IMG/VR virus record: IMGVR_UViG_3300032167_007646
Source: a virus
Taxonomy: Duplodnaviria > Heunggongvirae > Uroviricota > Caudoviricetes
Length of the DNA: 64,000 nucleotides
Direction: 5' to 3' (one strand)
Part shown: positions 8,076-57,821 of the stretch, in pieces
Layout: each line of letters begins with the position of its first letter
How positions within the stretch are numbered: the first letter of the stretch is position 1
Made by a program: the position numbers and the translations under genes
The notes under the pieces: model-generated
Told to the model about the DNA's origin: nothing
Databases searched by the model: none
What the model saw: the letters and a program-made list of their open reading frames with translations, nothing else

Positions 8076-8489
8076 TTATTTTACACCCCAAAGTGTATTT
8101 ACTTTATCCATATTTGTCTTACAAGTTGAAACCATATTTTTCAAATCATCTAATATAGGTGAAACTTCAAACATAATTGCTTCAACAGTAGAATTATTTT
8201 CAATTAATTCTTCTACTTTCATTTGACGACCTGTTATTGCTTCACTAATCTCATTCTGATAATCTTTACTTTCATCTGCTATAAAAGGATTAAGAGTCAT
8301 TCTATAAGTTGAAAAAATAGTACCTAAACACTTCTTTCTCTTCTCAACCTTTTCATTCATATCTAAACAAACCTTATAATTTGTTTCTAACTTATTAAAA
8401 AGTAATTTACTCTGAACCTCTAATTCATGATTCTTACCTTTTTTACCCCCATAAACCTTTGTCATCTTTTGACCATTCTTCTTCACCAT
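8076..8489 (-). CDS. Hypothetical protein
   Basis: 137-aa ORF. Its start overlaps the 3' end of the methyltransferase gene. Confidence 0.3.
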   Translation of the reverse strand: MVKKNGQKMTKVYGGKKGKNHELEVQSKLLFNKLETNYKVCLDMNEKVEKRKKCLGTIFSTYRMTLNPFIADESKDYQNEISEAITGRQMKVEELIENNSTVEAIMFEVSPILDDLKNMVSTCKTNMDKVNTLWGVK

Positions 8490-9276
8490 TCAGCACTCCT
8501 ATCTCTTTTTCTATTCTTTCAACTATAATATTATAATACTTTTCATCCAATTCAAAACCTATGTAATTTCTACCTGTTCTCATACAAGCAATAGCCGTTG
8601 TGCCACTACCCATACAATTATCTAAAACTACTTCACCCTCATTGCTATATGTTTTTATTAAATATTCGCATAAAGCAATAGGTTTTTGAGTAGGATGTAA
8701 TTTATCTTTATCACGATTAAACTTTATTAAATTCTTTGGAAATCTCTCTCCTTTATTTTCTGTTAAATAACCATGACAATTTTCTCTACCACTTTTTCCA
8801 CCTGCACGAACAACTGCACTATTTTCTTTTTGCTTACCACTTCTTGTTGTATAAGGTTTACCCTCTGACATTTGTGGATTATATATAAGATTTTCACCAT
8901 TTTTTACAAATGAAGTAGCACCTGTACCAAAGACACAAATATCCTCAGTTATTTTTAAAGGACAATAATGACTATTCATAAAATTTGTACCATTATCTTT
9001 TTCCCATACCCAATTATACTTCCACATATCTATATTAGAATTAATTAACAGAGAAGTAAAAGGTTGTTGTGAAAATAATACAATAGCACGATTTGGTTTG
9101 ATAATACGCTTGTATTCTTGCCACAACAAGTCCATAGGTAACTTCTTATCCCAACTTGATGCACTTGTTCCATAAGGCAAATCACAAAGAATCATATCTA
9201 TACTATTATCAGGTATTCTCTTCATACCTATTAAACAATCTTCATTGAAAACCATATTCATCAAAATTATCACCAC
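8443..9276 (-). CDS. DNA methyltransferase, N4-cytosine/N6-adenine family, beta class (orphan; no restriction enzyme partner seen)
   Basis: Motif IV 'LCDLPYGT' precedes motif I 'LDNCMGSGTTAIAC'. The order IV then I indicates the beta class. Confidence 0.75.
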   Translation of the reverse strand: MVIILMNMVFNEDCLIGMKRIPDNSIDMILCDLPYGTSASSWDKKLPMDLLWQEYKRIIKPNRAIVLFSQQPFTSLLINSNIDMWKYNWVWEKDNGTNFMNSHYCPLKITEDICVFGTGATSFVKNGENLIYNPQMSEGKPYTTRSGKQKENSAVVRAGGKSGRENCHGYLTENKGERFPKNLIKFNRDKDKLHPTQKPIALCEYLIKTYSNEGEVVLDNCMGSGTTAIACMRTGRNYIGFELDEKYYNIIVERIEKEIGVLNGEEEWSKDDKGLWG

Positions 9277-9966: not shown

Positions 9967-10734
9967 TTAACCTAACAGAGACAAAATTAATGGACATACC
10001 CCTGTATATACTGTTAAAAATAAAATATGTAATAATACAGACCATTTTAAACTATATCTTAAATAAAAATAAGTATAAACTAAATTCATTATACAATAAT
10101 TTACAAAAGCTCTCAAAGCAACAAGTAACCTACTATCAAAAACTGTTGTAACACTTTGTAATTGAAATGCAAACAAAAACAATACAGTAAATACTGAACC
10201 TAATATTATATATCTTTTATCTACTTTTTCTTCTTTCTTTTCTCTTACAAATGCTTTATGAAATACAACAATCATACAAGTTGCCAAACCTAATCTAAAC
10301 CAAATTTCTTCTACTATACCACTATACAATACTGTTCCAATTAGTTCAAAAGGATTAAAAGTTATAGGTATAAAATTTGGTATTTTACCATTATACACGA
10401 AAACATCCAATAAATACAATATTATAGGTACTATTATACCAATAGATAAAAATAAAATTTTACCTAACTTATCTATTTTATTTTCTTTTATACCGCAATA
10501 TTTTTTTGCCTTACTACCTAAAAAATACCCTAAAAATGTAAATATAAAACAATATATACTACTTATCGCAATTATAGTTATAATTTGAACTCCACTTTCT
10601 GAAAGAAATTGTTTTAAACTCTCTACACTTAAGCCTATAAAATCACAAGTAGAGATTATTATAGAACTTAAAATACCAAACAAACCCCACAACAGAGATT
10701 TAAACCATAATTTTTCTCTTAACTTTGACAACAA
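9967..10734 (-). CDS. CPBP-family (CAAX/Abi-like) intramembrane metalloprotease
   Basis: Polytopic membrane protein carrying the 'EEIWFRLGL' (EExxxR) motif. Confidence 0.55.
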   Translation of the reverse strand: MLSKLREKLWFKSLLWGLFGILSSIIISTCDFIGLSVESLKQFLSESGVQIITIIAISSIYCFIFTFLGYFLGSKAKKYCGIKENKIDKLGKILFLSIGIIVPIILYLLDVFVYNGKIPNFIPITFNPFELIGTVLYSGIVEEIWFRLGLATCMIVVFHKAFVREKKEEKVDKRYIILGSVFTVLFLFAFQLQSVTTVFDSRLLVALRAFVNYCIMNLVYTYFYLRYSLKWSVLLHILFLTVYTGVCPLILSLLG

Positions 10735-11039
10735 AACAAATCACAACTTTCTTTATGAATTATAGGTTTCTTTTTTGAGTTTGTATACTCTATTATTTCT
10801 TCTAATAAAGAACCCTCATTACCAATTAAATAAAGAACATCACTCGAATCCACTGAGTTCATCAAATAATGCCTAACTATATCATTATTTAACTCATTAC
10901 CTATATAAAAAGGTGCTCTCACAGTATGACCTAATGTTCTTAAATATTGAACTGTTATTCTTACTTCTTCTATTTTTACTTCTTTTCCAAACCAAACTGT
11001 AATTTTTTTACTCTTATTAGTTTTATACATCTTTCTCAC
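10719..11039 (-). CDS. Hypothetical protein (possible SLOG/nucleoside deoxyribosyltransferase-like Rossmann fold)
   Basis: 'VLYLIGNEGSLLEEIIEYTNSKKKPII' is a weak resemblance only. Confidence 0.25.
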   Translation of the reverse strand: MRKMYKTNKSKKITVWFGKEVKIEEVRITVQYLRTLGHTVRAPFYIGNELNNDIVRHYLMNSVDSSDVLYLIGNEGSLLEEIIEYTNSKKKPIIHKESCDLFCCQS

Positions 11040-14962: not shown

Positions 14963-15202
14963 TTAATTTCTATTCATAAATACTACTTGTTCTCTTATTA
15001 AAGTAGAACACTCATCAATATGCTCACATAAAGAACAATGACTAAAACATTCTTTAAATTTCATTGTTTTAATTAACTCATAACAACGAGAATTATCTTT
15101 AATAGGACCCCATAAGTTTTTACATTGACTATCTTTACAATCAAAACAATCCTTTATTGAATTTTTATCACAAACATTATTCATCAGCCAACACCCTCTC
15201 AC
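14963..15202 (-). CDS. Small Cys-rich protein (possible zinc-binding)
   Basis: 79-aa ORF with about 12 Cys. Confidence 0.3.
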   Translation of the reverse strand: MRGCWLMNNVCDKNSIKDCFDCKDSQCKNLWGPIKDNSRCYELIKTMKFKECFSHCSLCEHIDECSTLIREQVVFMNRN

Positions 15203-16922
15203 ATACTTTTTTTATTACAGGTACTACCACAGTATTACCCAATAAATCCATACCCTTATTATAATCTATATCTAATTTATAATCATCAGGATAACCGTCT
15301 AAACGTAATCCTTCTCTTAAAGTTAATTTACGAATACCTTTACCGTCTATAACACCTGTTTTATGAACATCAGTTGCTACAAGAGTTAAAGAAGGTTTAT
15401 TAGGGTCTAATATCTTTGTAAACTCATAACTTAATCTACCGCCATTTATATCATACAAAGTATTAGGATATGTGTCTAATTTTACTTCTTTAAGATAATT
15501 ACAACTTAACAAATACTCAATGTCTTTATCTAAATCTTCACCCTCATAAATCAATTTAAGTTCTTCTTTATCCAACCCTAAACCATCTTTCAAAGGCTGA
15601 CCTTTTTTCTTTGCTAAATCACTTCTTCTTCGTTCTGTAACTAACTTTTCCATTAACTTTTGCTGACTTTCTGTAGTAACACCTCTCAAACCTAAAGTCC
15701 AACTATGTATATTATTACTACTTCCCCTTTTATCTCTAATTGCTTTATCATATAAATAATCTACGGATAAATTATTTTTATCTAAATAATCAAACAACTT
15801 TATAGAAAAGTCACTATTTACACAAGGCTTACCAACCTCTTGAACATCTCCAAACTTACAATCTACCTTTTCAAAATCATCTAAACTAATATATCTATCT
15901 TTACAACCAACAATATAAATTCTTCTTCTTAATTGTGGTACACCAAAATCACTTGCTTGTAATACTTTCCAAGTAACTTTATACCCTAATTCTTCAAGTA
16001 CATATAATATTGTTTCTAATGTTTTTCCAATTGTTTTACCTAATTTTTTATCTTCTTTACTTAAATCATGAATAACAAGATTTTCCACATTTTCTAACAA
16101 GAAATATTTAGGACTTTTTTCTTTTAATATACGAGCCACTTCAAAGAAAAGAGTTCCACGAGTATCTTCAAAACCTGCCCTTTTACCTGCTGCACTAAAA
16201 GGCTGACAATTATGTACTATTATATCATTTGCTGTATAAGAATTATCTTCTTTTACACATAGATTATAAACTTTTGTTCTCCTACTTACTGTCTTAAATT
16301 TACCTCTAACTCTAACCCAAAAATATTTATTATCTTGACTATATACCTTATCTAAATATTTTTCAGTCTTTTGTATTAACTCAATAGGTATACCTACAAG
16401 CATACCCTTCTTCAACTCTCCAGCTTTTACCCATTCTGGTTCTTGCTTTTCTTTACTTTCCAAAACTTCTGGTAAAGGTGTAGTTATGGTATAAAATGGA
16501 TGATTTTCAGTAGTTCCTATCAAAATATTATTTTCCAAACTAATATTATAATAACTATCTACTGATTGTTCCATAATTTCTTCTACTTCTTTATATGTAT
16601 TTGTATGAGTTAATACTTTATCTCCTACCTTAACATCTCTTATTTTCTTATATCCTATTTCTGTAAATACAAGAGTTTCACCTATAAAACAAGGAAAACC
16701 TGCCAAAAGCATATCAAAATTAGGAATATCTTTTCCTTCTATTTTTGTAATATCTCCAACAATATTATCTTCACCAAAATTATCTTTATAAACTTTTAAC
16801 GCATGTGGTTTTATTTCAGAAGTAAGAACACACTCACCTTTTATACCCTTATCTTTTAATGCTTGTTCTAAACCAAGTCTTATTCCACCCATACCTGCAA
16901 ATAAATCTATATACTTAAACAC
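15177..16922 (-). CDS. DNA (cytosine-5)-methyltransferase interrupted by a 161-aa mini-intein at the catalytic Pro-Cys motif
   Basis: Motif I 'FAGMGGIRLG'. Motif IV is split: 'GFP' | intein | 'CQPFSAAGKR'. ENV motif 'LLENVENL'. Full C5-MTase C-terminal half. Confidence 0.85.
   Translation of the reverse strand: MFKYIDLFAGMGGIRLGLEQALKDKGIKGECVLTSEIKPHALKVYKDNFGEDNIVGDITKIEGKDIPNFDMLLAGFPCFIGETLVFTEIGYKKIRDVKVGDKVLTHTNTYKEVEEIMEQSVDSYYNISLENNILIGTTENHPFYTITTPLPEVLESKEKQEPEWVKAGELKKGMLVGIPIELIQKTEKYLDKVYSQDNKYFWVRVRGKFKTVSRRTKVYNLCVKEDNSYTANDIIVHNCQPFSAAGKRAGFEDTRGTLFFEVARILKEKSPKYFLLENVENLVIHDLSKEDKKLGKTIGKTLETILYVLEELGYKVTWKVLQASDFGVPQLRRRIYIVGCKDRYISLDDFEKVDCKFGDVQEVGKPCVNSDFSIKLFDYLDKNNLSVDYLYDKAIRDKRGSSNNIHSWTLGLRGVTTESQQKLMEKLVTERRRSDLAKKKGQPLKDGLGLDKEELKLIYEGEDLDKDIEYLLSCNYLKEVKLDTYPNTLYDINGGRLSYEFTKILDPNKPSLTLVATDVHKTGVIDGKGIRKLTLREGLRLDGYPDDYKLDIDYNKGMDLLGNTVVVPVIKKVCERVLADE
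16209..16691 (-). mobile_element. Mini-intein within the C5-MTase (residues 78-238); no obvious homing-endonuclease domain
   Basis: Block A 'CFIGETLVFTEIG...I'. Block B 'TENHPFYT'. Blocks F/G 'VYNLCVKEDNSYTANDIIVHN'. The next residue is Cys (+1). Confidence 0.8.
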
Positions 16923-18071: not shown

Positions 18072-20912
18072 TTAAATTTTCTCTATTTTATTTGAATCTG
18101 TTTTTATACCTTTTATACCTACTTCATCAAACATTACAACATAAGCGTCATTAACTATCTGCATAACAGTCCCCTCACCAAATATCTTATGACGAATACG
18201 AGTACCTTGTGTAATTGTTGTCCTATCTGTTATAGTATCTAAAATAGAACTTGTAGACTCACCAAATCTACCTCTATCCATATTTACTTTTGACTCTAAC
18301 TGCCTAATTAACATTTCATCTATTTTACCCTCTGAATCAAACTTATCACGAGGTATATTATAAATAAAACGAGAAGGAAGTCTATATGAATTATCATAAT
18401 TAGAACCCTCTGCATCAACCATAAATAGAAGTTCTTTTGCTCTTGTCATCGCAACATAAGCAATTCTTCTTTCTTCTTCCATCATTGCTGCACAAGTTGT
18501 TCTACTACTTGGCATAATACCCTCATTCATATCTACAACAAACACTATTGGATACTCTAAACCTTTTGCAGCATGAATAGTCATTAACTTAACTTTATTT
18601 GGAGTTTCTTCTTCATCACTTGAAGTATATAAAGATAACATACTCAAATAATTACCTAACTCTACTTTTTCACGCTGATTATGTTCATAATGTTGTGCTG
18701 AACGTTTCAATTCTTGTAGATTTTCCCAACGCTCTACTTCACTATTTTTATACAATTCTTCAAGGTTTAATGCTGTATATACCCTACCCATTAACATAGA
18801 TATTGTTTCTACTTCTGCATATTGTTTCAAATCTTCAACCAACTCAACTAACCACTTTGCTTTTGTACTCTTAAATGTTTTATGGTCTATATTCATACTT
18901 AAAGTTTCATATAAACTAAATTTACCACTTGATAGTTCTTTTAATAATTCTATCTTCTTTGGACCTATACCTAACGATAAAGTCTTTATTGTTCTCATAA
19001 AAGATAAATTATCCCCAAAAGCAACTACACTTAACAAAGCTAAAACATCTTTAATTTCTTTTCTTGAATAGAAAGAAATACCACTTAATACTTCATAAGG
19101 AATTCCATTTTCTATTAGTTTTTCCTCAAGAGTACGAGAAGAAGTATTACTTCTATACAAGATAGCAATATCACTATATGGTTTCTTTAGTGATAATATT
19201 CTTCGTGCTACCCAATCTGCCTCATTATAAACATTTCTTGCATGATAATGTAAAACCCTTGCGCCATTACCTTTGTTTGCCACCAAATCTTTATCTACTC
19301 TATTAACATTATGTTTAATTAAAGCATTACTAACATCTAATATTTGTGGAGTTGAACGATAATTAGTTGTCAAATAAACAGAATGAACTTTATTCTCTCT
19401 ATTCTGTAATTTATTCATAATAGCCTCAAACTGAACTATACAATTTACATCACTACCTCTAAATGAATAAATACAATTATGAACTAAAACATTATTAACA
19501 AAAAAGTTTCTACTATTTGGTACATTTATATCATACACCTTACCACTGTAATTCTCCATTTTTATATCTATAATGTCAGATAACTTTACACCATAATCCA
19601 AATATACAGGTAAAGAATCACCTATCTTTAATTCATCAGCACGACATAATTCACTAGGTAATTCAGATATTAAACGGGCATTTATAACTAAATCTTTTTC
19701 TTCTCTATCAGCAATTATATGTGCATATTCACCTGCTTTATCAAAATCTGTAACACAAGTAACATTAGAACCATCATATATATTATGTCCATAAGTATAT
19801 GTTGCATTATCTCTACCTACATCTTTAGCAACATTTCCAAAATACTCTAAATATACTGAATTTTGTTTTATACTATTTCTACAAGCAAATAATTTATGTT
19901 CAGGTGTAAGTGTTAACTCATTACCATTCTCTAAAATTATTTTAACAACTTTGCCATTATAATCTCTCATAAATACTGCATCTATTTTAAATGAGTCTAC
20001 TTCACCATTACCTACACCACTTAAAACATCATCACCAATATTGAAACCATCTATATTTCTTTCAACACCATATTTTCCTCTAACTTTAGAACCTGCAACG
20101 ACACACTGACTATCATCACCAACAACAAACAAATTACCACATTTGTTAGAAAGAATACCTAATAATTCTACCTCTCTCAAAGAAACATCTTGAAACTCAT
20201 CTACTTGAATATAATCAAAAACATTTTCCCACATATCACGAACCTCTTTACGAGTTTTCAAGACATATAAGGCCATATTCAATAAATCTTCATAATCTAA
20301 ACAAGCATCACGCTTTTGTTCCCTTAAATAACCATAAATTATTTTTAACTCTCTATTTGGTGCAATCTGCATAAGATTATGTAATTCATAAGAACTTGAT
20401 TTCTCTAAAAGTTCCTCATAATTACTTAAATATGTTCTCTGACCATTCTTGCAACCTGCACCTATAATTTCAGTTAATGCTCTTTTATATGGAAAGTCAG
20501 TATTAGTCATACCTAATTCTGCATAAACTACTTTTAACATATCTACTTGGTCATCTACATCCATTATCTTAAAATTCTTTGAAATACCTAATACTTCTAT
20601 TTCACTATGTAAAAACCTATTACAAAAACCATGAAATGTCATAATATAAGGTGTTGCAATATCCCCACCTATCATATGATTTATTCTTGCTTTCATTTCA
20701 TTTGCGGCCTTATTTGTAAATGTTACAGATAATATTCTATTAGGACTTATATCCAATTCATCAACTAAATAAGCATAACGAGTAGTCAATGCTCTTGTTT
20801 TTCCTGAACCTGCACCTGCAATAACCCTAACATAACCCTCTGTTGTTGTTACTGCTTCTAACTGTTCTTTATTCAAACCCATTAGTATCTTATTCACTAT
20901 ACACAACTCCAA
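18072..20912 (-). CDS. UvrD/PcrA-family superfamily-1 DNA helicase interrupted by a 210-aa mini-intein
   Basis: Walker A 'AGAGSGKT', 'LSVTFTNKAANEM' and 'VDEFQD'. Motif III is split: 'VVGDDSQ' | intein | 'CIYSFRGSD'. Confidence 0.85.
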   Translation of the reverse strand: MELCIVNKILMGLNKEQLEAVTTTEGYVRVIAGAGSGKTRALTTRYAYLVDELDISPNRILSVTFTNKAANEMKARINHMIGGDIATPYIMTFHGFCNRFLHSEIEVLGISKNFKIMDVDDQVDMLKVVYAELGMTNTDFPYKRALTEIIGAGCKNGQRTYLSNYEELLEKSSSYELHNLMQIAPNRELKIIYGYLREQKRDACLDYEDLLNMALYVLKTRKEVRDMWENVFDYIQVDEFQDVSLREVELLGILSNKCGNLFVVGDDSQCVVAGSKVRGKYGVERNIDGFNIGDDVLSGVGNGEVDSFKIDAVFMRDYNGKVVKIILENGNELTLTPEHKLFACRNSIKQNSVYLEYFGNVAKDVGRDNATYTYGHNIYDGSNVTCVTDFDKAGEYAHIIADREEKDLVINARLISELPSELCRADELKIGDSLPVYLDYGVKLSDIIDIKMENYSGKVYDINVPNSRNFFVNNVLVHNCIYSFRGSDVNCIVQFEAIMNKLQNRENKVHSVYLTTNYRSTPQILDVSNALIKHNVNRVDKDLVANKGNGARVLHYHARNVYNEADWVARRILSLKKPYSDIAILYRSNTSSRTLEEKLIENGIPYEVLSGISFYSRKEIKDVLALLSVVAFGDNLSFMRTIKTLSLGIGPKKIELLKELSSGKFSLYETLSMNIDHKTFKSTKAKWLVELVEDLKQYAEVETISMLMGRVYTALNLEELYKNSEVERWENLQELKRSAQHYEHNQREKVELGNYLSMLSLYTSSDEEETPNKVKLMTIHAAKGLEYPIVFVVDMNEGIMPSSRTTCAAMMEEERRIAYVAMTRAKELLFMVDAEGSNYDNSYRLPSRFIYNIPRDKFDSEGKIDEMLIRQLESKVNMDRGRFGESTSSILDTITDRTTITQGTRIRHKIFGEGTVMQIVNDAYVVMFDEVGIKGIKTDSNKIEKI
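19476..20105 (-). mobile_element. Mini-intein within the UvrD/PcrA helicase (residues 270-479)
   Basis: Begins with Cys. Block B 'TLTPEHKLF'. Blocks F/G 'VYDINVPNSRNFFVNNVLVHN'. Followed by Cys (+1). Confidence 0.8.
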
Positions 20913-31112: not shown

Positions 31113-32681
31113 TTATTTTCTATTTTTAGATGTCTTTTTTGTATCAGATTCAGTATTTGATACTTCTTCTTCTACTTTATTTTCAATTGTAACACCTTTT
31201 AAACCCTCTGTTATTGCACCTGCAATATTAGAACCTATTTTTTCTTCTTTACTTTCATTAGCATCCATTAACATTTTTGTACCTAAAGCACCTGCTAATA
31301 CAGATTTAATATCTATACCTAAACCTGCTGTTAATCCCTCTGAAATTTGAGAAGTTGATTTAGTAATATCCTCAACTAATTTAGAAGTATTACCCTCACC
31401 ATACATAGTAATCTTATCAATATTAGCCAAAGGTTTAGCAACATGCTCAGCAATTTCAGGTAATATCTTAAAGTACATTTCAAGAACAGCAGCCTCTTTC
31501 ATCTTAGCCATAGCTTCTGCTTTCTTTTCAGTTGCTTCAGCTTCAGCAATACCTTTTGCTCTTACTGCTTCTGCTTCTGCAAGACCTCTTGCTCTAATAC
31601 CCTCTGCTTCCTGTTCTGCTTCATACTTACGAGCATCTGCATTTATCCTTAATGCTTCAGCCTCACGCTCTACTTCAAACTTTTTAGCCTCTGCATCTTT
31701 TTGACGCTTATACAATTCAACTTCAGCCATTTTTTCTTGTTTATACTTTTCAGCGTCAGCCTGCTTACGAATTGTAGCACTCAATTCTTGTTCTTTAACT
31801 TCTGCTTCCTTTTTCTTCAATTCAACAGCTTTTTCCTGTGCAGCAATATTCGCATTTGCTGTAGTTATTTCTATTGTTTTACGCTGTTCCTCTTTCTGAA
31901 TTTCATAAGCAGCATCAGCTTCAGCCTGCTTAACATCAGATTCTCTTTTTAGTTCAGCCTGTTTTATCTTCAACTGATTTTGCTTTTCTGCAATATCTGT
32001 ATCTGAATTAACCTGTGCTTCATTAGCCATTTTCTTTGCCTCTGCTTCCGCAATAGCAACATCTCTTTCTGCCATAGCCTTTGCAATTGAAGCATCTTTT
32101 TGAATTTGAGACATATTATCCTGACCTAATGCTACAATCAAACCCTTTTCATCATCAATTCTCTGAATATTACAAGAAATAATTTCAATACCTAAAGCAT
32201 TCATATCTTTCTGTGCTTTTTCTTGAACTTCATCACCAAACTTCTTTCTATCAGTACAAAGTTCTTTCAATTTAACAGTACCTATAATTTCTCTCATATT
32301 ACCTTGTAAAGAATCAGTTAAAGCACTAACTATTTCATCTTCTCTCATATTCAAGAAGTTTTTCATAGCCAATTTAATACCCTCATCATCTGTCTTTACC
32401 CTAATTTTAGCAACAGCATCTATATCTACACCTATAAAATCTAATGTAGGAATATAACCATTTGTCTTAATATCTACAGTTATTTGCTTAACAATAAGAT
32501 TATCCTTTCTTTCTAAAAAAGGAATCTTAATACCTGCTCTACCTATCAATATACGAGGTTCTTTTCTATAACCTGATATAATATAAGCTTTATCAGGTGG
32601 AGCTTTAACATAACCTGACATCAAAATGATTAAAAAGAATATAACCACTGCCACTACTGGAATTATAATTGATAAATCCAT
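31113..32681 (-). CDS. Flotillin-like SPFH/band-7 protein (FloT/YuaG-like)
   Basis: N-terminal TM, SPFH domain, and a long Ala/Glu-rich 'EA-repeat' coiled coil. Confidence 0.75.
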   Translation of the reverse strand: MDLSIIIPVVAVVIFFLIILMSGYVKAPPDKAYIISGYRKEPRILIGRAGIKIPFLERKDNLIVKQITVDIKTNGYIPTLDFIGVDIDAVAKIRVKTDDEGIKLAMKNFLNMREDEIVSALTDSLQGNMREIIGTVKLKELCTDRKKFGDEVQEKAQKDMNALGIEIISCNIQRIDDEKGLIVALGQDNMSQIQKDASIAKAMAERDVAIAEAEAKKMANEAQVNSDTDIAEKQNQLKIKQAELKRESDVKQAEADAAYEIQKEEQRKTIEITTANANIAAQEKAVELKKKEAEVKEQELSATIRKQADAEKYKQEKMAEVELYKRQKDAEAKKFEVEREAEALRINADARKYEAEQEAEGIRARGLAEAEAVRAKGIAEAEATEKKAEAMAKMKEAAVLEMYFKILPEIAEHVAKPLANIDKITMYGEGNTSKLVEDITKSTSQISEGLTAGLGIDIKSVLAGALGTKMLMDANESKEEKIGSNIAGAITEGLKGVTIENKVEEEVSNTESDTKKTSKNRK

Positions 32682-32803
32682 AATCTCATCTTTCCCTTCT
32701 ATAATTTTTATAAAGAAAAATATTCTTTATTATATTTTAATTATGTAAACTGTCTTAATAACTGTCCAAACAATACCATTTCTGTTAAATAATATAAAAT
32801 TAT

Positions 32804-32848
32804 ACAAAAAAAAGATGTGTTAAACATAAAGTTTAACACATCTTTTTT
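32804..32848. terminator. Bidirectional intrinsic terminator ending the operon
   Basis: A-run, then hairpin GATGTGTTAAAC-ataaa-GTTTAACACATC, then a T-run. Confidence 0.6.
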
Positions 32849-32850
32849 AT

Positions 32851-33232
32851 TTAATCACAATTACAATCGCAATCACAATCACAATCGCAATCACAAGACA
32901 TATCACAACTAAAATCCCCTGTATCACAAACACAATCATCTTGAATTGTAGAATTATTTATTTCATCTTTAACCATATTTTCTATTTCACTATGTAATAA
33001 AACAGATTTACCATATTTTCTACTACCTAAAATAGATACTTCTCTCTCATCAAATTTTTTTCTTTATATCCTCTGATAATCCATATTTTCTACTACCTAA
33101 AATACTTGACCTGTTTCTTCCCTGATAAGCAAAACTATTACGAGCAACTTCCATACCTTTTTTAAAGCCCTCATGATAACCCTCTTGATAACCATCATGC
33201 CAAGATTTTATTTCTTTATTCTTATCTTTCAT
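32851..33232 (-). pseudogene. Frameshifted gene: a 60-aa ORF (33050-33232) followed in the +1 frame by an ORF ending in a 41-aa Cys/Asp-repeat tail (MVKDE...CDCDCDCDCDCNCD). Removing one base from a T7/A7 run at 33055-33061 fuses them.
   Basis: Hand translation. ORF1 ends '...ILGSRKYGLSEDIKKKI*'. The downstream frame reads '...FDEREVSILGSRKYGKSVLLHSEIENMVKDEINNSTIQDDCVCDTGDFSCDMSCDCDCDCDCDCNCD*'. A 24-bp direct repeat (33017-33040 and 33087-33110) encodes ILGSRKYG twice. Confidence 0.4.
32855..32900 (-). repeat. Imperfect hexanucleotide repeat (plus strand ACAATC[A/G])n encoding (Cys-Asp)n
   Basis: Plus strand reads 'acaattacaatcgcaatcacaatcacaatcgcaatcacaag'. Seen directly in the sequence. 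Confidence 0.8.
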
Positions 33233-33242
33233 ATTATCACCC

Positions 33243-33410
33243 TTACAACTTTATTTTTTTATTTTTCAAAGAACCATCCCAAATACTCCTAATCTTACAT
33301 ATAAAAGAATTTCTATTTCTATCATCATCTATTGACACACAAACAGGAACATCTTTACCCTCTTGTGCTAATGCTATCTTTTCTTTTGCAGTTAAATACT
33401 TTTTCTTCAT
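33243..33410 (-). CDS. Small hypothetical protein; start moved to MKKKYLTAKEK
   Basis: Short ORF inside the operon. Cys-containing. Confidence 0.3.
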   Translation of the reverse strand: MKKKYLTAKEKIALAQEGKDVPVCVSIDDDRNRNSFICKIRSIWDGSLKNKKIKL

Positions 33411-35417: not shown

Positions 35418-36206
35418 TTAACCCATATGATTACAAGCAAAATTTGATAAAGCATAAAGTTTTTCTACAACAAAATCAGGAATATAACCACTTTCACTAT
35501 GCACACAAATTTTACCTAAAACTTCTATATTTATATTATCAACAGTTAATTTACCACTTGTAATACCATCTCTCAAAGCCTTACACTCTTTACTATTCTT
35601 TTTATAGGAACAATAATCACAAGAAAAGTTATCTACTTCTTTATCATCACCCTCTAAAAGACAATCAGTACAACTAAAATACCATCCTATAAGACCTTTA
35701 CAATCCCAAGAATTGCAAACATATTCTTCTGAACAATCTGTTACCAAATCTATTACTTTTTCATCTGTAGAAAAATCTACCATATAAAAAGGTGCCATAC
35801 GAACAGGTCCTTCATTTGATTTCTTATGTTCTTCAAACTTTCTCTTCCAAAACTCTACATAATCTGCATAAGTTTCACATTCTAACCAATCAATATTATA
35901 ATCAAAATAATCCCAAGTTTCAAAACCAAAATCTTTCTTCAATTTCTTATTGATTTTATCATGCTCTTCATATAATTCTTTTGTATATTTTCCATCCTTA
36001 ATATACTTAAAAGAACTTGATTTTTCATCATAATAAACACCATAATCAGATGCTACTTTTAACAATTTTTCTTTATTCTCATAATATTCTCTATAATATT
36101 CTTTAATCATATTAAAAAGAATATCTTTTGTTTTATCATCATCTTTTTTACCAATTATGAAACTACTACTCGAACTATTTGTAACATAATCCATCCTAAT
36201 TTTCAT
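35418..36206 (-). CDS. DFVTNSSSSSF-tag family protein, paralog 4 (Cys-rich; C-terminus 'ACNHMG')
   Basis: N-terminus 'MKIRMDYVTNSSSSSFIIG'. Full-length paralog of 37348-38133. Confidence 0.5.
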   Translation of the reverse strand: MKIRMDYVTNSSSSSFIIGKKDDDKTKDILFNMIKEYYREYYENKEKLLKVASDYGVYYDEKSSSFKYIKDGKYTKELYEEHDKINKKLKKDFGFETWDYFDYNIDWLECETYADYVEFWKRKFEEHKKSNEGPVRMAPFYMVDFSTDEKVIDLVTDCSEEYVCNSWDCKGLIGWYFSCTDCLLEGDDKEVDNFSCDYCSYKKNSKECKALRDGITSGKLTVDNINIEVLGKICVHSESGYIPDFVVEKLYALSNFACNHMG

Positions 36207-37347: not shown

Positions 37348-38133
37348 TTAACCCATATGATTGCAATAAACATTAGATTTTGCACCTAATTTTTCTACAA
37401 CATATTCAGGTATATAACCACAATAACTTATCACACCTATTTTACCTAATACCTTGCAAACAAGTGTCTCTTTTGTATATTTACCTTCTTTTTCATTTGA
37501 CTTAAACTTTTCACAAGCATCTTTATTATGATTAAAAGGACATTCCCCACATTCTCCAATATAATTTCCTTCTAAATCATAATCCTGCTCTTCTGATGGG
37601 AAAAGAACACAAGGTAAATACCAATCTATCAATTCTTGATAATCAAAGCTATCTTTGAATAACTTACCATCTGGCATTTCTCTATCTTTTTCAAAATCAA
37701 TTATATCAAAAGGTCTCATAGAAAAACCATGAGCATCCTTTGAATCTTTTCCACCAAAAAATTCTACAAAATCATCATAAGTTTCACATTTTAACCACTC
37801 AAAATTATGATAAAAATATAAATCACAAAGTTCTACACCAAAATCTTTTTTCAAACGAGCATTTATTTCTTTACGCTCTGCTCTAAGTTCATCAGTAAGT
37901 TTACCAAACTTAATATATGTAAAACACTCTCTTTCTACATCCCAACAAACACCATAATCTTTTGCAACAGGCATAAGTCTTTTCTTTATATCTAAAAACT
38001 CTTTATAAATATGTCTTACAAGTTCATATACAGTATTTTTATCAATACCATCACCATATTTACCTATAATAAAACTACTACTTGAGCTATTTGTAACAAA
38101 ATCTTTTCTAAATTTCATACCTACTACCACCAA
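37348..38133 (-). CDS. DFVTNSSSSSF-tag family protein, paralog 2 (Cys-rich; C-terminus 'YCNHMG')
   Basis: N-terminus 'MKFRKDFVTNSSSSSFIIG'. Aligns along its full length with 35418-36206. Confidence 0.5.
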   Translation of the reverse strand: MVVVGMKFRKDFVTNSSSSSFIIGKYGDGIDKNTVYELVRHIYKEFLDIKKRLMPVAKDYGVCWDVERECFTYIKFGKLTDELRAERKEINARLKKDFGVELCDLYFYHNFEWLKCETYDDFVEFFGGKDSKDAHGFSMRPFDIIDFEKDREMPDGKLFKDSFDYQELIDWYLPCVLFPSEEQDYDLEGNYIGECGECPFNHNKDACEKFKSNEKEGKYTKETLVCKVLGKIGVISYCGYIPEYVVEKLGAKSNVYCNHMG

Positions 38134-38833: not shown

Positions 38834-39073
38834 TTAATTCATATCTTCACGAGCAATATTATATCCTATTTGAAGAAGTTTTGCTTTCTTTGTTGCCGCT
38901 AACTTGCTTGTAGCGTCAGCTATTTTATAAAAAGGAACTTGCATAGGATTCTTTTCATAAACCACAAAATTATCTATTCCCTCTTGTTTAACCATAAAAT
39001 TATTAAAATGAATAGTATCATCTATTTGTTTCATTTTAGGATTATAAATTTCTTCAAACTTCATATAACTCAC
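38834..39073 (-). CDS. Hypothetical protein
   Basis: 79-aa ORF in the operon. Confidence 0.3.
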   Translation of the reverse strand: MSYMKFEEIYNPKMKQIDDTIHFNNFMVKQEGIDNFVVYEKNPMQVPFYKIADATSKLAATKKAKLLQIGYNIAREDMN

Positions 39074-39082
39074 TCCAATAAA

Positions 39083-39427
39083 TTATTCTATTATCCCTAA
39101 AATTGCAAAATCATAAGTAGAAAACTTAATAGACTTACCATTACCAAAGAACACAAATATAGTTTTATTATTTGTAACCTCAAGGGATTTAGAATCAGCA
39201 AAAGCTTTATCTATTTCTTCCGCTTCTGAATAAAACTTTCTAATATCCCTTTCTTGTTCATTTTCATCATCAGTCTTAAATACAAAACCTAACTGAATAT
39301 AAGCAGAAAAAACAAAATCACCCATTAGTTCTTTCATATAATTAGTAATATCATAACGATATTCTGTAAAATCCTTAAAGTCTTTATTGCAAAACTTATT
39401 CTTATATTTTTCCAACAAAATCACCAA
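39083..39427 (-). CDS. Hypothetical protein
   Basis: 114-aa ORF in the operon. Confidence 0.3.
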   Translation of the reverse strand: MVILLEKYKNKFCNKDFKDFTEYRYDITNYMKELMGDFVFSAYIQLGFVFKTDDENEQERDIRKFYSEAEEIDKAFADSKSLEVTNNKTIFVFFGNGKSIKFSTYDFAILGIIE

Positions 39428-39431
39428 CCTA

Positions 39432-39701
39432 TTATTTTACTTTTTTTATTGCACACTTTTCAGTACTTACTACAAGTTTTTCTCCATCTTTTACAAACAA
39501 AGTAATTGCACCGTCATCAATATCATATGTACTTACCTCAAACTGCTTAACAGCACCATTTGGCTGTTCTACTGTTGCAATATAACTTGTATTTGCAATC
39601 TTAAACATCATAAGAACCATTAGAGTTGCTATAACTACTGCAATACCAACTGCTATAAAATCAATACCTTTTACAATTTCTACAAATCTTTTCTTCAACA
39701 T
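39432..39701 (-). CDS. Small membrane-anchored protein
   Basis: 89-aa ORF with one TM helix. Lies directly downstream of the SPASM gene. Confidence 0.35.
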   Translation of the reverse strand: MLKKRFVEIVKGIDFIAVGIAVVIATLMVLMMFKIANTSYIATVEQPNGAVKQFEVSTYDIDDGAITLFVKDGEKLVVSTEKCAIKKVK

Positions 39702-39706
39702 AACTA

Positions 39707-41026
39707 TTAACCTCCATAGAATTCTCTTTCTTTATTATCACAAAGAACAATATCATTTACCAAAGGACAACCACCCATACAAAGTTCTCTCTTTGGACAT
39801 CCCTTACAACTATATCTTAAACAATCTCTAAACTTATTAAATTCTGAACTTTCCCAAGCATCCTTTATAGTTACTTTATCAGAAAGTTTAACAGCATACT
39901 TTTGGTCCTGATTATCAAAAGAACAAGGCAAAGCAGTCATATCTGCTGCAATATACATAGAATATCTACTACCCTCACAGGTATCAACACTACAAGTATC
40001 AATATGCTTACTCCAACGAACAACTGCAGGAATAGAACAACTATCAAAACCAATCTTAAATGGTGTTCTATGATTATCTACCAATTCAAAGAACTCTTTC
40101 ACACGAGGGTCATCAAGTCTTAAAACGTCATCATAATCACCCAAACCAACTGGTTTATGAAGGAGAAACACAACAGCATTTATACCTTTTGGAAAACCAT
40201 TATATTTAACTCTCAAAATTGCCTCATCTATTGTTGAATTACTCAATACATAATGAATATTTGTCTTTACACCCGCGTCTAACAACATCTTAATTGCTTT
40301 CATTGTATAATTAGGCTTCTGAACCTCATTATACACTTTATAAAATTCATATTCTTGGGGTTCTTCACTATAATACATATGATGAACTTCATCCCAAGCA
40401 TAATCTAATTCATTTATTTTATAAGCAGGTTCATCCCACTTACATTCTTCATTCAGACCACCAAGAGTAAATAATACAGGAATATCATCTTCTGATTTAT
40501 AAACTTTCTTTTTATCCTCACTATGTACCCTTCTTAGTGCTAAATCTGGTATCATATCCAAACGAGAGTATTGCGAGACTGCCACAGCACCACAATACTT
40601 TTTACAAAGAGCAGCCTTTTCAGGTGTCATACCAAGACCACTTGTTGTAAAATTAGGTATAATACCATTATCACGAGTGTATTTTAAAACTTCTTCAAAA
40701 TTCTCATGCATATCTGGGTCACCACAACCACCTAATGCTATTTCAAACAATCTTTCTTTAGACCAATCTATAATTTTTTTATAATCTTCTAACTTCATAT
40801 TAGGTTTATCTGAATGTAATCCATCCTGATAACACTTAATACCTGCTTTCATACAAAGACCACTTTTTCCATGAGCACAATTTCCCATTAAACCAACATC
40901 TATGAGGTGAGGATACTCTGCCATAAATGGGTCTTCTTCTACATCAAAAGCCCTAATATATTCTCCTGTCTTATCATTAAACATTGTTGTAAAATTATAT
41001 TCACCATCTCTAATTACTCTAATCAC
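39707..41026 (-). CDS. SPASM-domain protein, probable radical-SAM enzyme with a non-canonical N-terminal Cys triad (C-x8-C-x6-C); GTG start
   Basis: C-terminal SPASM '...CSVDTCEGS...C...CLRYSCKGCPKRELCMGGCP'. Gly-rich 'ALGGCGDPDMH'. N-terminal 'GNCAHGKSGLCMKAGIKCY' replaces CxxxCxxC. RBS AGGTGG sits 7 nt before the GTG. Confidence 0.55.
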   Translation of the reverse strand: MIRVIRDGEYNFTTMFNDKTGEYIRAFDVEEDPFMAEYPHLIDVGLMGNCAHGKSGLCMKAGIKCYQDGLHSDKPNMKLEDYKKIIDWSKERLFEIALGGCGDPDMHENFEEVLKYTRDNGIIPNFTTSGLGMTPEKAALCKKYCGAVAVSQYSRLDMIPDLALRRVHSEDKKKVYKSEDDIPVLFTLGGLNEECKWDEPAYKINELDYAWDEVHHMYYSEEPQEYEFYKVYNEVQKPNYTMKAIKMLLDAGVKTNIHYVLSNSTIDEAILRVKYNGFPKGINAVVFLLHKPVGLGDYDDVLRLDDPRVKEFFELVDNHRTPFKIGFDSCSIPAVVRWSKHIDTCSVDTCEGSRYSMYIAADMTALPCSFDNQDQKYAVKLSDKVTIKDAWESSEFNKFRDCLRYSCKGCPKRELCMGGCPLVNDIVLCDNKEREFYGG

Positions 41027-41203: not shown

Positions 41204-41380
41204 CTATATTACACCTGTAAAAATAGATATAAAAAAACTTACTACTACTACAATAAGAACTATAATTAAAACTATCATAAAATAGTCATCTATGTCTGCA
41301 AATGCAAAAAAATCACAAACTTCATCTAAAATATCACTTATAAACTCTTTAATTCTATTCTTTATCTTATCAAACCACAT
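41204..41380 (-). CDS. Small membrane peptide, paralog b (MWFDKIKNRIKEFISD...)
   Basis: Hand translation. RBS AGGTGG. Same architecture as paralog a. Confidence 0.4.
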   Translation of the reverse strand: MWFDKIKNRIKEFISDILDEVCDFFAFADIDDYFMIVLIIVLIVVVVSFFISIFTGVI

Positions 41381-44740: not shown

Positions 44741-44970
44741 TCCTCCTTAGGATATAACATAATTTTCTTTACTAATTTACCATTTTCGTCTAACACAACC
44801 CTAACTTGGATATCTTCAATAGGAGTAAAGTCAGAACTACAACAACTATTTCCTAAACAAACTTCTGTTGTCAAATGGTCAATACCTACAAAAGACTTTA
44901 ACTTTTGCATAAGTTCCAAAGCATTCAAACCATCAAAATTATTTACATTACGAGACATTACAAAAAACAC
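44734..44970 (-). CDS. Hypothetical protein
   Basis: 78-aa ORF. Confidence 0.3.
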   Translation of the reverse strand: MFFVMSRNVNNFDGLNALELMQKLKSFVGIDHLTTEVCLGNSCCSSDFTPIEDIQVRVVLDENGKLVKKIMLYPKEEW

Positions 44971-57252: not shown

Positions 57253-57526
57253 TATTTAAGTCATCTGTAAAATTACTTATAAATACAAATAAACCCATTA
57301 TTGCAATAAGTGCTGCTACAACAAATAAAGGTATATGAACTGACATTACAAGCAACTGTAAAACTGTATGAATATAAGGGTTCTGAAAAGCTATATTGGT
57401 CCAATCCAAGCACCAATTATAAGAATTACTTAAAAGAGCACATCCTAATACTCCTATACTCATTAAAACACAACATATTACAAAACTTAAAATTAAATTT
57501 CCTATACTCTTAAATACTCTTTTCAT
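57245..57526 (-). CDS. Small membrane protein
   Basis: 93-aa hydrophobic ORF. Confidence 0.35.
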   Translation of the reverse strand: MKRVFKSIGNLILSFVICCVLMSIGVLGCALLSNSYNWCLDWTNIAFQNPYIHTVLQLLVMSVHIPLFVVAALIAIMGLFVFISNFTDDLNNV

Positions 57527-57821
57527 TTTTTACTCCTTTTTCTTCAAAACAACAACCTATAAAAACGACTATACCAACATATAATATATACGCAAAAATA
57601 CCACTTAAAATCATTGAGAGTATAACAGGTATTATCAATAAAATAATCTCTATAAAAATATTACCAAACTTTTCAACTAATTTAGTATATAACATACTTA
57701 AAAGTTCATATAAGCAATAAAAACCTGAAACTCCTATTGTACTAAACAATGTAAGTACAATTATACCAAATACTTTATCTTTTAAATTTCTTATCATATT
57801 AATACCCTCTACTCTCATCAT
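57510..57821 (-). CDS. Small membrane protein
   Basis: 103-aa hydrophobic ORF. Confidence 0.35.
   Translation of the reverse strand: MMRVEGINMIRNLKDKVFGIIVLTLFSTIGVSGFYCLYELLSMLYTKLVEKFGNIFIEIILLIIPVILSMILSGIFAYILYVGIVVFIGCCFEEKGVKNEKSI

Follow-up and report, generated by a model that had tools for sequence, protein, structure and literature searches.

A frameshift in an A run ahead of a Cys-Asp tail, probably a clone-specific A6-to-A7 allele of a conserved and unannotated gene

When a 60-aa open reading frame stops directly after a run of seven As, and a second frame stays open on the far side of the stop, is the locus two genes, one gene with a controlled junction, or one gene that has been broken? 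This question was raised by a stretch of viral DNA of 64,000 nucleotides (IMG/VR record IMGVR_UViG_3300032167_007646), the whole of which is called the window below. The earlier note on this DNA had offered three explanations of the arrangement, namely a homopolymer sequencing error, slipped-strand phase variation and programmed frameshifting. The features at the junction are:

33050-33232, minus strand: truncated 5' ORF, a reading frame of 60 aa plus TGA; its product occurs on at least 23 contigs
33055-33061, minus strand: A7 homopolymer (T7 on the plus strand), site of a +1 A insertion; A6 in every intact close relative
32851-33054, minus strand: 3' portion of the gene, 67 out-of-frame codons plus TAA; dN/dS is below 1 in relatives

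The 60-aa ORF was found on the minus strand as described, running from 33232 to 33050 and ending at TGA right after the A7 run at 33061-33055. It begins with an ATG at 33232, preceded by an AGGGTG ribosome-binding site, and its 3' end encodes ...SEDIKKKI (GAT ATA AAG AAA AAA ATT TGA TGA). This segment carries the most conserved part of the family, GYxEGYxEGFKKGMEVARNSFAY, followed by the first SILGSRKYG motif. The +1-shifted frame is open from just upstream of the A7 run to the TAA at 32853-32851, and encodes FDEREVSILGSRKYGKSVLLHSEIENMVKDEINNSTIQDDCVCDTGDFSCDMSCDCDCDCDCDCNCD. Within the out-of-frame part at 32851-33054 lie a second SILGSRKYG motif, a helical segment, a conserved DDCVCDTGDFSCD and the (Cys-Asp)n tail. 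Given the base composition of this strand, a stop-free run of 71 codons has a probability of about 5.6e-4 of arising by chance, and the downstream frame is therefore real coding sequence. Removal of one A does join the two frames, giving a 126-aa ORF made up of 59 residues and 67 new codons with the (Cys-Asp)n tail at its end; the 71 extra codons counted previously are the whole stop-to-stop stretch, a trivial discrepancy.

The A7 run by itself is unexceptional for the window, which contains 43 A/T runs of at least 7 nt and 166 of 6 nt. Six of the A/T runs of at least 6 nt in the window (at 8439-8444, 15207-15213, 41231-41237, 44962-44967, 57526-57531 and 2688-2693) are likewise followed by the end of an ORF, with another frame open for at least 50 codons, and most of these ORF ends look like normal gene boundaries.

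When the repaired protein was used as the query, nine homologues were found, and all nine are single ORFs. Both halves are spanned by eight of them (115-140 aa); the ninth, P0007 (99 aa), diverges and ends before the tail. Invariant alignment columns (42) are spread over both halves and include GFK-GMEVARNSFAY and both copies of S-ILG-RKYG; the DDCVCD motif of the tail, and a Cys-Asp pair further on in it, come close to invariance (at least 90%). At the junction, the proteins P0001 and P0002 read DIKKKFDERE and DIRKKFDERE, as predicted from the removal of one A, and their DNA is AAG/AGG AAA AAA TTT, that is, A6. In the DNA alignments the window has just a single A more than L001, L002, L019, L020 and L110. 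In the loci L004, L111 and L026 the homopolymer is absent from the site (ATG TCA AAG TTG or similar). The comparison with homologous loci, which had been proposed as a check, thus returned only single intact ORFs, so that the two halves are one gene. Between lineages, dN/dS was mostly 0.05-0.4, whether in the N-terminal part, in the middle or in the tail, and the full-length protein is therefore the selected form. Judged by these comparisons, the intact full-length form is conserved and under purifying selection in the relatives.

The gene could still have undergone fission in this lineage, with the 60-aa N-terminal protein now accompanied by a separately translated 41-aa Cys/Asp peptide starting at the ATG at 32976. 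Gene callers do annotate the 41-aa ORF (P0015) on A7 contigs, and the N-terminal fragment retains the motifs that are most conserved. However, unlike the neighbouring genes, this ATG has no Shine-Dalgarno sequence upstream, and without a ribosome-binding site the 41-aa ORF is unlikely to be translated independently. Furthermore, a fission arrangement is seen in no relative, and it would lose the second SILGSRKYG motif together with 20 further conserved residues. We regard fission as very unlikely.

Homopolymers are classic sites of error, and strains nearly identical to the window have the intact form, as they would if the seventh A were a product of sequencing or assembly. However, A7 was present in all ten of the contigs fetched (L009-L018), which come from ten JGI and ENA samples. 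No more than one or two studies may lie behind these samples, or the same runs may have been assembled repeatedly, in which case they may represent one propagated strain. These contigs are 99.9-100% identical to the window over overlaps of 1.9-16.2 kb. In the protein collection, the exact 60-aa truncated product is found on at least 23 contigs, listed from Logan as well as from JGI and ENA, and the corrected A6 protein of the A7 haplotype is never called. Since A7 recurs in ten separately assembled samples and in at least two assembly sources, it is a property of the DNA of one clone. A homopolymer sequencing error is thus excluded in practice, and an artefact of sequencing or assembly is extremely unlikely. 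One of the ten contigs, L016, has a 1-base deletion at about 2540-2580 (about 33665 in the window) which splits the YkuD gene into pieces of 397 aa and 55 aa; the cause may be faulty assembly or a second polymorphic indel.

The A6 form was found in seven loci from other samples, whose flanks are 99.0-99.7% identical to the window. Its products include P0012 (126 aa), whose sole difference from the repaired window protein is N40S and which is found on 7 contigs of unrelated accessions, and P0013 (128 aa), an intact close relative with one extra tail unit. When 1.5 kb with the site at the centre were aligned, all eleven A7 sequences had a single haplotype in common, the exceptions being a terminal SNP and a 1-base gap in L016. 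Among the seven sequences with A6, by contrast, there are several haplotypes, each at least 2 SNPs away. One A7 haplotype against several A6 haplotypes implies that A7 is a single derived event, and from the alignment we take A6 to be the ancestral and widespread state. These results establish that the +1 A insertion is real, derived, confined to one clone and stable in every assembly of that clone.

The same data bear on slipped-strand phase variation, according to which the A tract would turn the Cys/Asp-tailed protein on and off reversibly, the window having been caught in the OFF state. A6 and A7 do both occur among strains that are at least 99% identical, the tract is located in the middle of the gene, and the gene has a second variable element in its length-variable microsatellite. 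However, only a single OFF allele on a single haplotype was seen. Exact look-ups in about 15 billion proteins found no A6 revertant of the window haplotype, no A5, A8 or A9 product, no OFF allele of another lineage, and no A7 product on the S40 or L001-type haplotypes. Two DNA-pattern scans of the metagenome_contigs collection, which evidently does not hold these contigs, returned no tract-length allele, although the fetched loci do match the pattern. Contingency tracts are typically longer than A6/A7; moreover, A6/T6 runs number 166 in the window, and several family members have no tract at the site. A contingency locus would be expected to have multiple tract alleles and recurrent switching, but only A6 (in all lineages) and A7 (in one haplotype) were found. 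With one derived allele in one clone, and neither revertants, other lengths nor recurrence, phase variation is without support and seems unlikely to explain the locus, although minor A6 subpopulations may exist within samples.

The A7 allele might instead yield useful full-length protein by functional recoding, either through polymerase slippage or through a +1 ribosomal shift, the latter by tRNA-Lys moving from AAA to AAA or in the manner of prfB at AUU UGA U. The geometry is suitable for this, as a +1 slip on A AAA AAA UUU gives exactly the wild-type KKKF and the 0-frame stop lies within one codon of the A run. The frame downstream of A7 is also undamaged, but a recent mutation explains the intact frame equally well. 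However, the split arrangement is not conserved: every relative is in frame, and L004, L111 and L026 have no A run at all. At 7 nt, the run falls short of the roughly 8-9 nt at which slippage becomes efficient, and where programmed transcriptional slippage would call for an A/T run of at least 8-9 nt with a conserved length class, the run is 6 nt or absent elsewhere. No Shine-Dalgarno-like element is present at the prfB spacing, the only candidate being a GAGGA about 15 nt upstream, and the predicted RNA fold of 131 nt around the site is unremarkable (-16.3 kcal/mol, z = -1.96). Neither the conserved two-frame arrangement nor the stimulatory element expected of a programmed ribosomal frameshift was thus found, and the programmed frameshifting put forward in the earlier note is contradicted by a split that occurs in no relative, by relatives without the A run, by a run of only 7 As and by the lack of a stimulator. 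Functional recoding in general is quite improbable.

None of the three explanations offered previously is therefore the best one, and a fourth, an ordinary strain-specific frameshift mutation, is preferred. The locus is probably a genuine, fixed, clone-specific A6-to-A7 frameshift allele of a conserved, unannotated gene of about 126 aa. The intact gene would encode an N-terminal helix with the GYxEGYxEGFKKGMEVA motif, two SILGSRKYG motifs and a Cys/Asp-rich C-terminal tail. Replication slippage in one clonal lineage would have stretched the A6 run that encodes Lys-Lys (AAG AAA AAA TTT) to A7. Translation in the A7 clone would then stop at the TGA after 60 residues, leaving the C-terminal 67 codons, including the tail, out of frame and with no ribosome-binding site of their own. 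This event is likely to be recent, because the downstream frame has suffered no further damage. We infer that the outcome is a function lost or truncated, not a regulated switch. Full-length protein would be made at most as a small fraction, through unprogrammed slippage of RNA polymerase (A7 to A6) or a +1 slip of tRNA-Lys. Some such expression may occur, since the downstream frame is intact and the geometry of the A run allows a +1 slip to the exact wild-type protein.

The repeated sequences around the junction, and the signal at the end of the gene, are as follows:

33081-33104, minus strand: first copy of a 24-nt exact repeat encoding ILGSRKYG; the motif is invariant in all homologues
33011-33034, minus strand: second copy of the 24-nt exact repeat, also encoding ILGSRKYG
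32853-32908, minus strand: imperfect TGTGAT-type hexanucleotide array encoding the Cys-Asp tail; period 6, 9.3 copies, 76% matches
32803-32853, minus strand: intrinsic terminator, a hairpin (inverted repeat) plus U-run directly after the TAA of the full-length frame; -21.7 kcal/mol, z = -6.0

Two structural claims made earlier, that a 24-bp direct repeat encoding ILGSRKYG flanks the stop and that the tail is encoded by an imperfect hexanucleotide microsatellite, both hold at these positions. The two copies of the repeat are spaced 70 nt apart in the window and 69 nt (23 codons) apart in A6 alleles. A recent duplication was considered as the source of the repeat and rejected, both copies of the motif being invariant throughout the family; the repeat is a duplicated peptide motif conserved across the whole family. 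The tail, DDCVCDTGDFSCDxSCDCDCDC..., varies in length among strains without loss of frame, the L019 allele having 6 nt more, and P0011 and P0014 differing by 4 aa (12 nt), which is typical behaviour for a microsatellite. From its composition, the tail may bind metal or make disulfide cross-links. The strong terminator sits after the full-length stop, not after the stop of the 60-aa ORF.

The protein belongs to a very small family. When 1.84 billion representative proteins were scanned in full with a HMMER profile, only 3 clusters were obtained, and the family search found no members in GTDB species genomes or in IMG/VR. The fused protein had no tblastn match in the INPHARED phages or the PLSDB plasmids, the 5.5 kb around the locus had no megablast match in the phage and plasmid collections, and no significant match to the protein was obtained in Pfam, NCBIfam, PHROGs, PADLOC or PDB sequences. 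The nearest candidate, Yae1_N (PF09811, with a GX3 motif), scored 18.1 bits at residues 14-29, in the stretch GYQEGYHEGFKKG, and was rejected against its gathering cut-off of 27.5. A metallothionein identity likewise found no support in Pfam or NCBIfam, where no family matched. An AlphaFold model built on an 8-sequence alignment had a mean pLDDT of 48 and was not good enough to search for similar folds. This low-confidence model points to a long helix at the N-terminus along with two shorter ones, and to disorder in the tail.

In the loci of the closer relatives the gene order is 262-aa gene, 184-aa gene, YkuD, 55-aa gene, Cys/Asp-tail gene, flotillin, CmpB and YdjM, where the 262-aa and 184-aa products are Cys-rich proteins and YkuD is an L,D-transpeptidase. 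The gene of interest here is the small one immediately upstream:

33243-33410, minus strand: upstream 55-aa gene (MKKKYLTAKEK...), which stays with the Cys/Asp-tail gene in a different context

That different context is the one of P0008, a homologue 58% identical. It lies in quite another neighbourhood, whose sole overlap with that in the window is the 55/56-aa protein; a further protein encoded on L026 (95 aa) has its match in a window gene some 11 kb away. The family of the 55-aa protein is equally narrow. Since the 55/56-aa gene is shared and the two families are equally narrow, the Cys/Asp-tail gene and the 55-aa gene look like a functional pair.

Several other genes near the locus encode small or Cys-rich proteins. 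Upstream of it, next to the 184-aa protein, which is zinc-ribbon-like, are two paralogous Cys-rich proteins of 262 and 261 aa (window 35418-36206 and 37348-38133; about 71% nucleotide identity over 385 nt) that have no family match. At 38834-41026 the window encodes a radical SAM (rSAM)/SPASM protein (439 aa, generic matches only), then ORFs of 89, 113 and 76 aa, and this region could be a peptide-modification cassette. On L026, in the neighbourhood of the distant relative, there are at 8733-8984 and 10454-11009 further small proteins with related low-complexity features, adjoined by a TIGR04133-like rSAM/SPASM gene; an 83-aa protein ends in ...GDGCDCGACDND, and proteins of 76 aa and 112 aa have GYxxGY motifs.

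The gene is carried by a mobile element that is large and low in GC, comes from gut or rumen metagenomes, and is probably a jumbo phage or megaplasmid. All window ORFs of at least 90 aa are on the minus strand, GC is 23-31%, the GC skew is close to -0.4 along the whole window, and no tRNA is present; the A7 clone is also represented by a contig of 301.6 kb. Genes of replication or mobile type in the window are a UvrD helicase with an intein (18072-20912), a C5 methylase with an intein (15177-16922), an N6 methylase, two RepL-like proteins, a thymidine kinase and a QueE/NrdG-like rSAM protein. Genes of cellular type comprise flotillin, YkuD, MacAB-YknX with MarR, a Na/H exchanger, a PstS-like protein and an SLH protein. 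In its best segment the flotillin (window 31113-32681) is 80-86% identical to flotillins of rumen and gut Lachnospiraceae MAGs (L030-L045), whose loci have a GC of 38-46% and carry neither the Cys/Asp-tail gene nor the 55-aa partner. This similarity suggests a host-derived flotillin on a low-GC element, and Lachnospiraceae as the host.

For annotation, the 60-aa and 41-aa ORFs should be treated as two pieces of one gene that was broken by a real mutation, and entered as a frameshifted allele. In the A7 clone they should not be listed as two genes, nor the junction as a recoding site, and the main value of the analysis is this cleaned-up annotation. The intact gene defines a very small family, marked by a (Cys-Asp)n tail of variable length and a conserved partner of 55 aa, so far found only on this unclassified low-GC element, and may interest those who study such elements.

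Among known systems, the intact protein can be compared with the precursors of ranthipeptides and SCIFF peptides, such as PapA. PapB-type enzymes make Cys-Xn-Asp thioethers with n = 0-6 (PMC9413430). Like those precursors, the protein has a conserved N-terminal region and a variable C-terminus rich in Cys and Asp, with Cys and Asp/Glu motifs in the C-terminal core, and in both genomic contexts an rSAM/SPASM gene is near, within 6.5 kb in the window and 0.7 kb in L026. However, it is 126-140 aa long, no NCBIfam or Pfam model of a ranthipeptide or SCIFF precursor matched it, and an adjacent, co-conserved maturase was not found: the rSAM gene of the window (39707-41026) is ten genes away and that of L026 (11109-12218) is of a different family. 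The two are not mutually orthologous (BLASTP E = 0.02), and both fall far below the cut-offs of known peptide maturases. The RiPP precursor reading was rejected on these grounds, the two nearby rSAM/SPASM genes being unrelated to each other and neither of them a recognised maturase, and any link to RiPPs or rSAM enzymes is speculative. It is highly improbable that the gene is a new Cys/Asp-core precursor or metal-binding factor, with a leader-like N-terminus and a hypervariable core, processed by an rSAM/SPASM enzyme and switched by the A tract on a rumen Lachnospiraceae element. The acidic tail also resembles metallothionein-like C-X-C repeats in its repeated Cys-X-Cys spacing, but it matches no family model, and metal binding is here a guess from composition.

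The junction itself has three parallels. As in the simple-sequence contingency loci of Neisseria, Haemophilus, Campylobacter and Mycoplasma, the length of a homopolymer within a coding region decides whether a full-length product is made; however, the tract here is 6-7 nt, has one derived allele and no recurrent switching, and is not conserved in the family. Transcriptional-slippage or 'savior' recoding of indels is known from the A9 run of Thermus dnaX, from IS elements and from poly-A genes of Buchnera and Blochmannia (PMC1088944, PMC5009743); selection against slippery A/T runs is evident at about 9 nt in many genomes, and productive slippage occurs at 8-9 nt (PMC1088944). Here too an A run lies where two overlapping frames meet and slippage by one A would restore the product, but the run is shorter than the 8-9 nt of the known cases and the overlap of the ORFs is not conserved. 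The third parallel is with strain-specific homopolymer-indel pseudogenes. The present gene differs from these in being an unannotated orphan on an unclassified low-GC element, but it is like them in that an A run within a conserved ORF has expanded by one base in one clone, the sister strains lack the expansion, and the frame beyond it is intact.
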